Virus record (IMG/VR): IMGVR_UViG_2645727905_000001
Source: a virus
Lineage: Duplodnaviria > Heunggongvirae > Uroviricota > Caudoviricetes
Length of the DNA: 6,968 bases
Direction: 5' to 3' (one strand)
Shown: piece by piece, positions 850-6,968 of the stretch
How positions within the stretch are numbered: the first letter of the stretch is position 1
How the letters are laid out: each line of letters opens with the position of its first letter
The notes under the pieces: model-generated
Told to the model about the DNA's origin: nothing
Databases searched by the model: none
What the model saw: the letters and a program-made list of their open reading frames with translations, nothing else
Translations under genes and position numbers: made by a program

Positions 850-4010
<3,161 letters not shown>

Positions 4011-4036
<26 letters not shown>

Positions 4037-4556
4037 TCAGCAACCCCGGTATCAGTTCATCCAGCGCGGCTGCTTTGTTCATGGCTTTGATGATATCCCG
4101 TTTCAGGAAATCAACATGTCGGTTTTCCAGTTCCGGAAAACGCCGCTGCACCGACAGGGGGATCCCGTCGAGAATACTGGCAATTTCACCTGCGATCCGC
4201 GACAGCACGAAAGTACAGAATGCGGTTTCCACCACTTCAGCGGAGTCTCTGGCATTTTTCAGCTCCTGTGCGTCGGCCTGCGCACGCGTAAGTCGATGGC
4301 GTTCGTACTCAATAGTCCCTGGCTGGAGATCTGTCTCGCTGGCCTGCCGCAGTTCTTCAACTTCCCGGCGCAGCTTTTCGTTCTCAATTTCAGCATCCCT
4401 TTCGGCATACCATTTTATGACGGCGGCAGAGTCATAAAGCACCTCATTACCCTTGCCACCGCCTCGCAGAACGGGCATTCCCTGTTCCTGCCAGTTCTGA
4501 ATGGTACGGATACTCGCACCGAAAATGTCAGCCAGCTGCTTTTTGTTGACTTCCAT
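4011..4556 (-). CDS. Nu1: Terminase small subunit gpNu1
   Basis: 181-aa ORF MEVNKKQLADIFGASIRTIQNWQEQGMPVLRGGGKGNEVLYDSAAVIKWYAERDAEIENEKL..., matching lambda Nu1 in sequence and length (recollection). N-terminal winged-HTH region. ATG at 4554-4556 sits immediately downstream of cosB. Confidence 0.95.
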
Positions 4557-4800
4557 TGTTCATTCCACGGACAAAAACAGAGAAAGGAAACGACAGAGGC
4601 CAAAAAGCTCGCTTTCAGCACCTGTCGTTTCCTTTCTTTTCAGAGGGTATTTTAAATAAAAACATTAAGTTATGACGAAGAAGAACGGAAACGCCTTAAA
4701 CCGGAAAATTTTCATAAATAGCGAAAACCCGCGAGGTCGCCGCCCCGTAACCTGTCGGATCGCCGGAAAGGACCCGCAAAATGATAATAATTATCATCTA
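4557..4800. promoter_or_regulatory. cos: cos site (cosB with Nu1-binding R-site repeats, cosN, cosQ side) in uncut prophage/concatemer configuration
   Basis: Reverse complement of 4557-4745 reads GGGCGGCGACCTCGCGGGTTTTCGCTATTTATGAAAATTTTCCGGTTTAAGGCGTTTCCGTTCTTCTTCGTCATAACTTAATG..., the lambda left end as I recall it. Inverted R-site-like repeats GGAAACGACAG (4586-4596) and CTGTCGTTTCC (4622-4632), and AAGAACGGAAACG (4679-4693). 4746-4800 resembles the lambda right end (CGTAACCTGTCGGATCGCCGGAAAGGAC...). Confidence 0.85.
4728..4751. promoter_or_regulatory. cosN: cosN terminase nicking site; 12-nt cohesive-end sequence at 4734-4745
   Basis: Plus-strand aggtcgccgccc (4734-4745) is the reverse complement of the lambda cohesive end GGGCGGCGACCT, flanked by cgcg... 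and ...cgtaacc exactly as at the lambda cos junction (CAGGTTACG|GGGCGGCGACCT|CGCGGG). Confidence 0.85.
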
Positions 4801-4944
4801 CATGTCACAACGTGCATCTACGCCATCAAACCACGTCAAATAATCAATTATGACGCAGGTATCGTATTAATTGATCTGCGTCAACTTAACGTAAAAACAA
4901 CTTCAGACAATACAAATCAGCGACACTGAATACGGGGCAACCTC

Positions 4945-5139
4945 ATGTCAACGAAGAACAGAACCCGCAGAACAACAACCCGCAACATCCGCTTTCCTAA
5001 CCAAATGATTGAACAAATTAACATCGCTCTTGAGCAAAAAGGGTCTGGGAATTTCTCAGCCTGGGTCATTGAAGCCTGCCGTCGGAGACTAACGTCAGAA
5101 AAGAGAGCATATACATCAATCCAAAGTGATGATGGATGA
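4945..5139 (+). CDS. Small DUF3950 / YlcI-YnfO family protein, predicted ribbon-helix-helix DNA-binding fold
   Basis: 64-aa ORF MSTKNRTRRTTTRNIRFPNQMIEQINIALEQKGSGNFSAWVIEACRRRLTSEKRAYTSIQSDDG. Basic N-terminus, then a predicted beta-strand (RNIRFP) and two helices typical of Arc/CopG-like RHH proteins. Strongly resembles my recollection of E. coli K-12 prophage proteins YlcI (DLP12) / YnfO (Qin), which sit next to the Nu1 homologues nohD/nohQ. First ATG after an in-frame stop at 4927-4929; GGGG about 7 nt upstream. Confidence 0.75.
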   Translation: MSTKNRTRRTTTRNIRFPNQMIEQINIALEQKGSGNFSAWVIEACRRRLTSEKRAYTSIQSDDG

Positions 5140-5326
5140 ACATCCCGGTTTCTTCCACCATCGCACCGGAAAAGCGACTATGAGGGTAACCCTGCGTCTG
5201 TCAGCACAGTAAAACCCGGTGTGCATCGTTTTTGATTATTCCCGCACACTCACGCAGAAGGAATTCCCCGTCGGGCTACGGTCATGGTTAATGCGGGAAT
5301 ACGGCGACGATACAGCGCATAATGTG

Positions 5327-5875
5327 TCAGGCTTGAATACCTTTATCGAATCCCGGTAATAAAAACTGTCCCTGTCTCTCCAGACGTTCCAGCTTTGCAA
5401 GCAATTGAGGTTTTTTCGTTCTCCCCCAGCGATTGAGCAGACGGCCTGACATGCTGGCGACATCCTTCTCTTTCATGTACTCCAGCATTACGGCGTTACG
5501 TTCTGCTTCATAACTTTCGCTGTACTTACGGAGTTCTGCTGACATCCAGTTAAACGCATTGATATAGGCTTCTTTAACAGCATCGGCTTTTGCCCCGTTA
5601 AATCCCATAACCAGCATAACGAAGCCACTAAAGTCCATGCGGTAGTAAATCTGTTTCTTGTCAAAAATACCTAAGTCATTGATTTTCTCGACGGCCCAAA
5701 AATGGGTTGTCGAGAATTCCTCAGAACATCTCAAACATTTAATAGCCCTAATCACATGCTGATGGCGTTTACCAAATGCCCTGGCAATCTGGAAGGTGTC
5801 AGTTACCGGTTGACCTTCTGCTGCGGTAACTAACTGGCGAAAGTCGAAGTCATGATTCGCAATTAATTCATTCAT
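5327..5875 (-). CDS. rha: Rha-family phage regulatory protein (Phage_pRha-like)
   Basis: Translation contains the Rha-family signature ...TDTFQIARAFGKRHQHVIRAIKCLRCSEEFSTTHF...YYRMDFSGFVMLVMGFNGAKADAVKEAYINAFNWM... The ORF-track start at 5944 is a GTG (plus 5942-5944 = cac); the first ATG is at 5873-5875 (MNELIANHDFDFRQLV...), giving a 182-aa product, which I prefer. The true start is uncertain. Confidence 0.8.
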   Translation of the reverse strand: MNELIANHDFDFRQLVTAAEGQPVTDTFQIARAFGKRHQHVIRAIKCLRCSEEFSTTHFWAVEKINDLGIFDKKQIYYRMDFSGFVMLVMGFNGAKADAVKEAYINAFNWMSAELRKYSESYEAERNAVMLEYMKEKDVASMSGRLLNRWGRTKKPQLLAKLERLERQGQFLLPGFDKGIQA

Positions 5876-6028
5876 GGCGTTGCCTGCTTCTTTGAAATGA
5901 ACCTTTGCCGCACAGGAAACCAGCCCACCGAGGCTCGCCAGCACTAACTGGTATCCTCAAAGGCCCATTCCAAAGGGTCAGGTTCGGTGTTTATTGTGCG
6001 CTGCGGTGCGCGGTGAAATACCGGTACA

Positions 6029-6057
6029 AAAATGCCCCGCATCTGCGAGGCATTTTC
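6029..6057 (-). terminator. Rho-independent terminator downstream of Rz/Rz1 (hairpin also foldable on the plus strand)
   Basis: Minus-strand RNA would read ...AAAAUGCCUCGCA-GA-UGCGGGGCAUUUUUGUACC: about 12-bp GC-rich stem with one G-U pair, followed by U5. On the plus strand the same hairpin has a C-A mismatch and is followed by UUUU. Lies between the Rz stop (6094) and the Rha start. Confidence 0.5.
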
Positions 6058-6093: not shown

Positions 6094-6527
6094 TTATTTT
6101 AAGCACTGCGTCCTGATGTATTCCTGCAGGTAGTTAACCTGCGCGGTTATCTTGTCGATTCCACCTCGGAGACGGTAATAATTGAGTTCAGCATCTGCTG
6201 TAAGTCCTGGGCTTTCTCCATCGCCCATGCTGCTGGCTCCGGTCGTTGACTTTGCACAGGTGGCGGAGACTTGCAGGCGCTTACGCCCAGCAGAAACATC
6301 AGCACGGAGACTTTCGATAGTCGCATTAGCGTCAGCAAGCTCCTTTGTGTATCTGGCGTCAAGTTCTGCTACATCACGTTGCCGCTTCTGCATATCAGCG
6401 ATGATGGATGTGGCTTTATCGCGCTGCTCTTTGTAGGCGATGGCGTTATCACGGTAATGATTAACAGCCCATGACAGGCAGAGGATGATGCAAATAACCA
6501 GAGCGGAGATAATCGCGGTTACCCTGC

Positions 6528-6531
<4 letters not shown>
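6094..6531 (-). CDS. Rz: i-spanin Rz (inner-membrane spanin subunit)
   Basis: [42 protein letters not shown]...: N-terminal transmembrane helix then a charged coiled-coil-like periplasmic domain; resembles RzpD/lambda Rz (recollection). Preferred start is ATG at 6529-6531, forming an ATGA overlap with the lysozyme stop (6528-6530); the ORF-track start at 6543 is a GTG. Confidence 0.85.
6147..6326 (-). CDS. Rz1: o-spanin Rz1 (outer-membrane lipoprotein), embedded in the +1 frame inside Rz
   Basis: Embedded ORF; from ATG at 6324-6326 it reads [59 protein letters not shown]: signal peptide with lipobox-like VSAC, Pro-rich mature region, fully nested in Rz as is typical for Rz1. The ORF-track start (6362) is a TTG and less likely. 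Confidence 0.75.

Positions 6532-6968
<437 letters not shown>

Follow-up and report, generated by a model that had tools for sequence, protein, structure and literature searches.

A DUF3950 cassette beside cosQ and a P22-type rha gene: probably separate accessory units between the lysis genes and cos of a lambda-like Escherichia coli prophage

In phage lambda, the interval between the lysis genes Rz/Rz1 and the cohesive-end site cos contains bor, the gene for an outer-membrane lipoprotein. Several other described systems are close to the locus considered here. The proteins YlcI (prophage DLP12) and YnfO (prophage Qin) of Escherichia coli K-12 belong to the DUF3950 family and are encoded beside a Nu1 homologue and cos. 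In P22, ribbon-helix-helix (RHH) proteins control antirepressors, as in the immI unit of Arc, Mnt and Ant. P22 also carries rha (orf201), which lies directly after Rz/Rz1 (gene 15); rha of P22 and phi80 is described as part of the late operon, with a product that harms lytic growth when the host is defective in IHF (PMC4936722). A search of the literature found no paper in which the function of DUF3950, YlcI or YnfO was studied, and no new information on Rha. Here we analyse a stretch of 6,968 nucleotides from IMG/VR record IMGVR_UViG_2645727905_000001, referred to as the window, in which a 64-amino-acid ylcI/ynfO-type (DUF3950) gene on the plus strand (4945–5139) and a rha gene on the minus strand (5327–5944) converge between Rz/Rz1 and cos, with 187 bp between them.

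Our preferred explanation, to which we give a probability of roughly 0.7, is that the interval contains two separate accessory units that are neighbours by chance: a cassette for a putative DUF3950 repressor and a P22-type rha. An earlier note on this DNA, made from its letters, had taken the two genes for a possible regulatory or superinfection-interference module. The parts were correctly identified there, namely a DUF3950 protein, a Rha protein and an accessory slot, but the module does not stand. The locus is ordinary mosaic lambdoid prophage cargo, drawn from two families that were already annotated.

The window represents the late region of a lambda-like E. coli prophage in reverse orientation, and its genes follow in the order Nu1, cos, the DUF3950 gene, rha, Rz/Rz1 and lysozyme. 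Both open reading frames (ORFs) are real genes. The 1.5-kb slot is 99.5–99.9% identical to E. coli chromosomes, in which the Prokaryotic Genome Annotation Pipeline (PGAP) names the products 'YlcI/YnfO family protein' and 'Rha family transcriptional regulator'; these names and our own family matches agree in confirming the two convergent genes and their location between Rz/Rz1 and cos. The 64-amino-acid protein matches Pfam DUF3950 (PF13132; E = 2e-20, 72.8 bits against a cutoff of 25), NCBIfam YlcI_YnfO_N (NF041551; 37.6 bits, cutoff 30) and PHROG 949 (E = 2.3e-35), and Rha matches Phage_pRha (PF09669; 75.4 bits, cutoff 29.9), ORF11CD3 (82, cutoff 25) and TIGR02681 (73.3, cutoff 45.95). With scores above the curated Pfam and NCBIfam cutoffs, the YlcI/YnfO-like assignment made in the earlier note is sound, as is its assignment of the minus-strand gene to the Rha family. 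Both genes are under purifying selection, with a ratio of non-synonymous to synonymous substitution rates (dN/dS) of 0.11 for the DUF3950 gene relative to the copy in phage BP-4795, and of 0.13 for rha relative to P22 rha.

That the two genes are inherited independently is observed directly. Among 5426 complete E. coli genomes, the DUF3950 gene occurs at 8370 places in 3785 genomes (70%), with up to 12 copies per genome; window-type rha, counted at a coverage of at least 80%, is found in 357 genomes, and the pair, counted at the same coverage, in 260, at 99.5–99.9% identity. All four combinations of presence and absence occur. Lambda has a DUF3950 ORF but lacks rha; in P22, which lacks both cos and a DUF3950 gene, rha comes directly after gene 15/Rz1; phage IdasGreatGrand has rha without the DUF3950 cassette; phage Turner has Bor in the place of Rha; and in PhiR49_1 the slot holds YbcV and a KilA-N-ORF11CD3 protein. 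A DUF3950 allele 100% identical to that of the window is present in the 6967-bp IMG/VR contig L123 at nearly unchanged coordinates (match at 4943–5134), and in a census of 75 IMG/VR viral contigs with a 97–100% identical allele the downstream occupant is Bor at 46 loci, Rha at 19, lambda-type ORFs at 7 and KilA-N at 1, the remaining 2 having no occupant. Since one and the same DUF3950 allele is accompanied by Bor, Rha, lambda-type ORFs, KilA-N-ORF11CD3 or nothing, the slot is indeed the cargo hotspot that it had been supposed to be, with rha as one of several alternative cargoes and Bor as the commonest.

Comparison with phage genomes places recombination junctions between the two genes. Several lambdoid phages without rha match the segment 4557–5319, which covers cos, the DUF3950 gene and the spacer, at 99.9% identity, and the segment 5406/5424–6093 is 90% identical to P22 rha. 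Similarity to lambda reaches to about 5156, just past the DUF3950 stop codon, similarity to Bor-type phages reaches to 5319, and similarity to P22 begins at 5406/5424. A junction thus lies at about 5160/5319 to 5406, and the spacer with its junctions (5145–5326) is common to Bor-type and Rha-type phages. The Rz of the window is 89% identical to P22 gene 15 and 57% identical to lambda Rz; rha appears to travel with a P22-type Rz block, and the DUF3950 cassette with cosQ/cosN.

These patterns bear on the reading of the locus as a functional pair comparable to P22 immI, in which the RHH protein would repress or counteract Rha within a regulatory or superinfection-interference module. The convergent adjacency is kept at high identity in the 260 genomes that have both genes, and P22 offers a precedent for RHH control over antirepressors; yet each gene is common without the other, recombination junctions fall between them, and the two follow different neighbours, the Rz block in the case of Rha and cos in that of the DUF3950 gene. 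Because the two genes converge they have no shared promoter region. Neither the shared control region nor the joint inheritance of an immI-like unit is found, and unlike in P22 immI the DUF3950 gene does not stand in one operon with an antirepressor-like gene. PADLOC defence models gave no match for the DUF3950 protein or for Rha. A further argument for a pair comes from phage satellites, where DUF3950 genes often adjoin genes of the Bro network of domain-swapping proteins (PMC10111431); the supplementary gene profiles of phage-inducible chromosomal islands (PICIs) in that study give '-DUF3950' for some PICIs, without comment, and have a Bro gene as the very next entry. In Gram-negative PICIs generally, however, the Bro zone adjoins the replication zone (PMC10111431), and the adjacency can be attributed to position. 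The earlier note had itself named independent inheritance as the outcome that would speak against its module, and independent inheritance is what the genomes reveal. We consider a functional pair improbable.

The DUF3950 gene and about 165 bp of highly conserved DNA upstream of it form a cassette (4779–5144, plus strand) that behaves as a single insertion/deletion unit. IdasGreatGrand keeps Nu1 and cosN/cosQ on one side and the spacer and rha on the other, and has about 50 unrelated nucleotides in place of the 366-bp cassette, its similarity to the window on the cos side ending at 4778. This is the discrete presence or absence between conserved flanks that is typical of morons. Because IdasGreatGrand was isolated as a phage without the cassette, the cassette is dispensable for plaque formation. 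Its cos-proximal boundary is close to the packaging signals. The 12-nt cohesive end of cosN was read directly at 4734–4745 as AGGTCGCCGCCC, the reverse complement of GGGCGGCGACCT, which we take to be the cohesive-end sequence of lambda, and alignment to the right end of J02459 sets window position 4746 against lambda bp 48502. AGGACCC at 4769–4775, the reverse complement of GGGTCCT and identical in the alignment to lambda 48473–48479, is presumably the homologue of cosQ.

Lambda carries the same cassette. In J02459, an intact 64-amino-acid DUF3950 ORF lies at complement 48109..48303 (2710–2904 of our lambda locus L004), about 200 bp from the right end, sharing 61 of 64 residues with the window protein and having the same upstream DNA back to cosQ. 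The ORF is not annotated, and the J02459 annotation has nothing after Rz in the stretch examined. Lambda differs from the window downstream of this ORF, where it carries bor along with ORFs of its own and lacks rha. The 165 bp upstream are near-identical in all lambda-cos loci examined, including L042, where the DUF3950 protein is 93% identical and Nu1 only 35% identical. In BP-4795, which has HNH/TerS/TerL packaging genes, Rz and the first packaging gene flank the DUF3950 gene, which is divergent from the latter and 41 bp away from it. From the divergence of Nu1 in L042 and from the packaging genes of BP-4795, it follows that the position of the DUF3950 gene is not tied to the lambda terminase. 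What is constant across the loci is that the gene sits where the lysis genes give way to the packaging genes, and that it is read against the late operon. The gene shares both slot and orientation with lambda bor; its product differs from Bor in being, by prediction, a cytoplasmic DNA-binding protein, and rha differs from both genes in being co-oriented with the late operon.

An arrangement of this kind could also be expected of a packaging factor, that is, of an RHH protein that binds DNA beside cosQ and modulates terminase at cos, whether by protecting the prophage cos or by aiding termination. The start codon is at a fixed distance of about 170 bp from cosQ (about 200 bp from cosN) in all lambda-cos phages examined, across almost invariant DNA and even where Nu1 is only 35% identical; but IdasGreatGrand, isolated as a phage, keeps cosN/cosQ and Nu1 without the cassette, and most distant homologues are in satellites or at chromosomal sites with no cos or terminase nearby. 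Two proteins (P0193 and P0252) fuse DUF3950 to the first ~50 residues of the small-terminase DNA-binding domain Terminase_2, although proteins fused in this way are rare and viral contigs yielded no relative of them. The BP-4795 gene, too, abuts a packaging module. In HK97, cos lies between the HNH and TerS genes, and by this analogy the DUF3950 gene of BP-4795, which has the HNH gene directly beside it on the packaging side, would not be next to cos. On balance a packaging role is unlikely.

The protein encoded by the cassette is very probably of the RHH fold. An AlphaFold2 model of the monomer, built from an alignment of 20 diverse family members (mean pLDDT, the per-residue confidence score, 74.7), has residues 1–18 extended, a helix at 19–32, a turn at 33–36 (GSGN) and a second helix at 37–60, which is the strand-helix-helix order with a short inter-helix turn that defines RHH proteins. 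In a Foldseek search against the Protein Data Bank (PDB), RHH proteins make up nine of the first ten matches and most of the top 50 (StnY 9kkd, NikR, Arc, MazE9, MatP, CopA-SO, ParD, HicB and NikA), typically with a root-mean-square deviation of 2.0–2.4 Å across about 40 residues; the best E value is 0.31, and none is significant. The matches outside the RHH group are plant TCP-domain chains and PKA docking-domain chains. A profile search against PDB sequences gave 9kkd ('Ribbon-helix-helix protein, CopG family') at a non-significant E of 0.26. When the 64-amino-acid protein and Rha were searched as plain sequences against the PDB, no match was significant, and those to ribosomal protein L16 were set aside as noise.

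Profile comparisons with Arc and CopG produced one weak in-register match, to Arc. In this hhalign alignment (P = 0.012, probability 3.6%), TTRNIRFPNQMIEQINIALEQKG is placed on Arc PQFNLRWPREVLDLVRKVAEENG in the structural register, such that N14-I-R16-F-P18...G33...S38 pairs with Arc N11-L-R13-W-P15...G30...S35. Residues N11 and R13 of Arc contact DNA. The DUF3950 protein resembles Arc, Mnt and CopG in size, in its basic N-terminal arm and in its strand-helix-turn-helix pattern, and Arc in particular in the N-x-R-aromatic-P of the strand and the G-x-x...S before helix B, but it has no significant sequence or structure score to any of them. The RHH fold predicted in the earlier note is therefore upheld by the model topology, by the predominance of RHH proteins among the Foldseek matches and by the Arc register, and is well supported although not statistically proven. 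YlcI and YnfO differ in nothing substantive from the window protein apart from an allele-dependent C-terminal tail, which varies between alleles beyond residue ~52–55 as a result of recombination junctions in that stretch.

Antitoxins are frequent among RHH proteins, and the Foldseek matches include MazE9, ParD, CopA-SO and HicB; it is nonetheless extremely improbable that the DUF3950 protein serves as antitoxin in a type II toxin-antitoxin system, because no toxin-sized conserved ORF adjoins its gene and because the satellite and chromosomal homologues also stand alone. The only neighbouring ORF, of 46 amino acids in the spacer (5219–5359, plus strand), is probably not coding, in line with the earlier remark that no toxin-like partner was evident. 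Its substitutions are mostly at codon positions 1 and 2 and mostly non-synonymous, it is absent in lambda and BP-4795, its 3′ end changes with the neighbouring cargo, and it has no Pfam or PADLOC match; it was rejected as a toxin or partner on the substitution pattern, the absence from these two phages and the lack of a family match. Several phage records annotate this ORF as a hypothetical protein.

What the DUF3950 protein might do is suggested by its distant homologues. A scan of 1.84 billion representative proteins gave 141 DUF3950 clusters, many of which are error-ridden copies of lambda control DNA. Genuine distant relatives (34–60% identity) come from Serratia, Pectobacterium, Brenneria, Xenorhabdus, Klebsiella, Enterobacter, Morganella, Proteus, Pantoea, Tatumella and Salmonella, among others. 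Their contexts were taken from one-genome-per-species contigs, which provided 39 distant loci. None of these adjoins a lambda-type Nu1, A, Rz or Rha. About 24 of the 39 are in P4-like or PICI-type islands of a common layout, and the others are chromosomal. In the islands, primase, small genes and an Icd-like gene occupy the minus strand, the DUF3950 gene is on the plus strand and divergent from the Icd-like gene, and optional cargo, AlpA and integrase follow on the minus strand, with a tRNA at two loci. This agrees with the Integration/Bro/Replication/Late zone layout described for Gram-negative PICIs (PMC10111431), and a 2026 survey places YlcI/YnfO among the genes of capsid-forming PICIs of Enterobacter.

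The DNA that separates the Icd-like gene from the DUF3950 gene can be aligned across genera, and at 22 satellite loci it contains GTG-N6-CAC sites, commonly at about −99, −76 and −30 from the start codon and at −123/−100 in one subgroup. When the six central bases of the first two sites, O1 and O2, are compared within a locus, 5.11 of the 6 positions agree, against 2.95 ± 0.30 for shuffled loci, and none of 10000 shuffles reaches the observed value. The centres also differ between loci in company with the protein. Where the residues before the IRF strand are TTKG, the operator centre is CACATA, CACAAA or CATATA; xYKG occurs with TTTAAA (TGTAAA in L047), AKKN with TGCGCA, and QLKN with TGTAGA. 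In a Mantel comparison, operator distance correlates with distance in these four residues at r 0.47, and with the rest of the protein at 0.18; a partial Mantel test that controls for the rest of the protein gives r 0.48, a value reached in none of 5000 permutations. At L054, a leftward promoter-like site (TTGACG-18-TATGGT) is aimed at the Icd-like gene, with O1 and O2 overlapping the −10 and the spacer next to the −35, and the −35 is conserved in the alignment.

From its sequence, the satellite layout looks like that of a classic repressor at divergent promoters, and the co-variation of operator-like repeats with the residues before the strand leads us to read DUF3950 proteins as operator-binding repressors. 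The satellite homologue would most likely repress the adjacent Icd-primase operon and its own promoter. Its GTG-N6-CAC repeats, about 23 bp apart, are unlike the operators of Arc and Mnt. Besides the repeats, the satellite leaders (L045–L082; about 200 bp upstream of the DUF3950 start, for example 6840–6960 of L054) share two hairpins, a long one of the form GAAGCCCGG...CCGGGCTTC and a short one that encloses the Shine-Dalgarno sequence of the Icd-like gene; Rfam searches of these leaders gave no family match.

For the cassette in the window, which is fixed next to cosQ, the corresponding scenario is that the 64-amino-acid protein acts as a dimeric, sequence-specific operator-binding repressor, which would be made when late transcription is off, in the prophage or early in infection, and would be silenced by convergent late transcription. 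Candidate roles of the cos-side copy are insulation of the packaging operon from read-through, and cross-talk with satellites or sibling prophages. In its broadest form, the proposal is that DUF3950 constitutes an uncharacterised class of RHH repressors, with satellite members that control Icd-primase operons through element-specific GTG-N6-CAC operators and a cos-side member that regulates the prophage or early state; we advance this form tentatively, as a possibility that falls short of being probable.

A number of observations weigh against our preferred explanation. Upstream of 4945 there is no sigma-70-like promoter on the plus strand; there is no GTG-N6-CAC site in 4600–5200, nor any other convincing operator upstream of the lambda-type gene; and no motif is common to the lambda-type upstream region and the unrelated one of BP-4795. 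The lambda-type protein is only 34–47% identical to the satellite proteins, so that for the lambda type we infer the function by transfer. With regard to the fold, no Foldseek or profile match is statistically significant (best E 0.3 and 0.26), and the AlphaFold2 model is of a monomer in which the beta-strand is not assigned. The satellite loci are related and the gene adjoins the sites, and shared descent therefore inflates the covariation despite the control by the partial Mantel test. Finally, Bro-type domains recur near the gene: among 77 ORFs downstream of the 39 distant loci there are four with AntA, three with Phage_pRha and one with ANT, and in L089 Bro-N adjoins the DUF3950 gene. This recurrence could mean a looser functional link, although the adjacency is explained by the known zone layout.

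The lack of a local operator, together with the likely control of satellite replication operons by homologues, would also suit a trans-acting moron whose targets would be genes of the host, lambdoid prophages resident in the same cell (a genome has up to 12 copies) or satellites with homologous repressors; rha would then be unrelated cargo. Such a role is compatible with all observations. The gene behaves as a cassette, is oriented against the late operon like bor, is kept as ylcI and ynfO in the defective K-12 prophages DLP12 and Qin, and is transcribed in K-12, where RNA-seq data list ybcW-ylcI as a convergent excludon. However, the DNA-reading residues of the lambda type, TTRN before the IRF strand, match none of the satellite types examined, no target is known and no defence family was matched. 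This possibility overlaps with our preferred explanation, from which it differs only in the location of the operator, and taken by itself we regard it as rather unlikely.

Turning to the DNA of the cassette itself, a Fur-box-like palindrome lies at its cosQ-proximal edge, directly beside cosQ (4777–4795; CAAAATGATAATAATTATC, with the core ATGATAAT-A-ATTATCAT and perfect 8-nt inverted arms). It agrees with the Fur consensus at 16 of 19 positions, and none of 200 shuffles gave any match; it is kept in lambda with one central change, and is gone with the cassette in IdasGreatGrand. A promoter-like site directed toward cos and Nu1 (GTGACA-16-TATCAT, 4808–4781, minus strand, 10 of 12) overlaps the palindrome and may be due to chance; it was dropped, the −10 in lambda being TATCAC. 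Inverted repeats at 4843–4885 are no better than the chance expectation in 231 bp, and there is no clear terminator after 5139. Comparative footprinting of the spacer between cos and the gene gave nothing, because lambda-cos copies hardly vary between cosQ and the start codon. Rfam identified no known RNA in the window.

The second unit, rha, encodes 182 amino acids if translation starts at the ATG at 5875 and 205 if it starts at the GTG at 5944 that is chosen by PGAP, the leader being too conserved for comparison to decide between them. In the 182-residue form, Phage_pRha covers residues 25–112 and ORF11CD3 residues 121–174. This architecture places the window Rha in the Bro network, and a sister phage has KilA-N with ORF11CD3 in the same slot. 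The window Rha is 84% identical in amino acids to P22 Rha and 90% identical to the IdasGreatGrand copy; profile scores, the identity to P22 Rha and the same place directly after Rz identify the gene, at the level of sequence, as the orthologue of P22 rha. The two differ in what follows them, a pac-type packaging module in P22 and a cos-type module in the window. Relative to both P22 and IdasGreatGrand, a patch at about 5690–5770 (residues ~35–62) is far more diverged than the rest of the gene, and the C-terminal 25 residues match IdasGreatGrand and differ from P22; the patch and the C-terminal switch indicate that rha is mosaic within itself.

Between Rz and rha is a hairpin with a flanking A-run and T-run (6028–6057, minus strand), a candidate bidirectional intrinsic terminator, with a folding energy of −21.4 kcal/mol (z-score −4.0; none of 200 shuffles folds as well). 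It is kept in P22 and IdasGreatGrand (equivalents in L085 and L086) with a single substitution, A in the window and G in both others, in the 3′ stem arm at the border of the T-run. The 150-nt leader between Rz and rha, hairpin included, is 97–99% conserved with P22, which is above the conservation of parts of the rha coding region. Under our preferred explanation, rha would be expressed behind this hairpin by antiterminated late transcription. In BP-4795, an 'anti-repressor Ant' gene (L087, 3712–4281) lies between R and Rz, as Bro-network cargo elsewhere in the lysis region.

On the minus strand of the window are the portal gene (cut), W, terminase A (2111–4036) and Nu1 (4011–4556), and on the lysis side of the slot are Rz (6094–6543), Rz1 (6147–6362) and, beyond them, lysozyme. 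Outside phages and satellites, DUF3950 genes are found at chromosomal loci in Salmonella enterica arizonae/diarizonae (L046, L049), in Rouxiella and Pantoea (L043, L070, L080, L083) and in Tatumella (L050, L060, L063). One has a Peptidase_C69 gene on one side and genes for an IpgD/SopB-like effector and its chaperone on the other, in a locus resembling Salmonella pathogenicity island 5 (SPI-5), and others are downstream of a cytochrome bd oxidase and ABC-transporter operon or beside a CitMHS transporter gene. Lambda DNA is also present in dozens of unrelated assemblies (L005–L034, L040, L041, L044 and L053; P0008, P0016 and P0102), including those of Streptomyces, Cohnella, Pedobacter, Staphylococcus aureus and Veillonella, metagenome-assembled genomes and others. 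The contigs concerned are about 3.5 kb or about 48.5 kb long and are probably sequencing control DNA, whose ORF has been annotated as the 'YlcI/YnfO family protein' of these organisms.

Finally, we note that few prophage genes of E. coli are as widespread as the DUF3950 gene, which the lambda reference J02459 carries without annotation. The comparative evidence gives DUF3950 a concrete and testable identity as an RHH operator-binding repressor, and the satellite homologues with their co-varying operators constitute a simple system in which this reading could be tested. If it is true, the control of some Gram-negative satellites would gain a protein repressor, and the map of lambda a new regulator.

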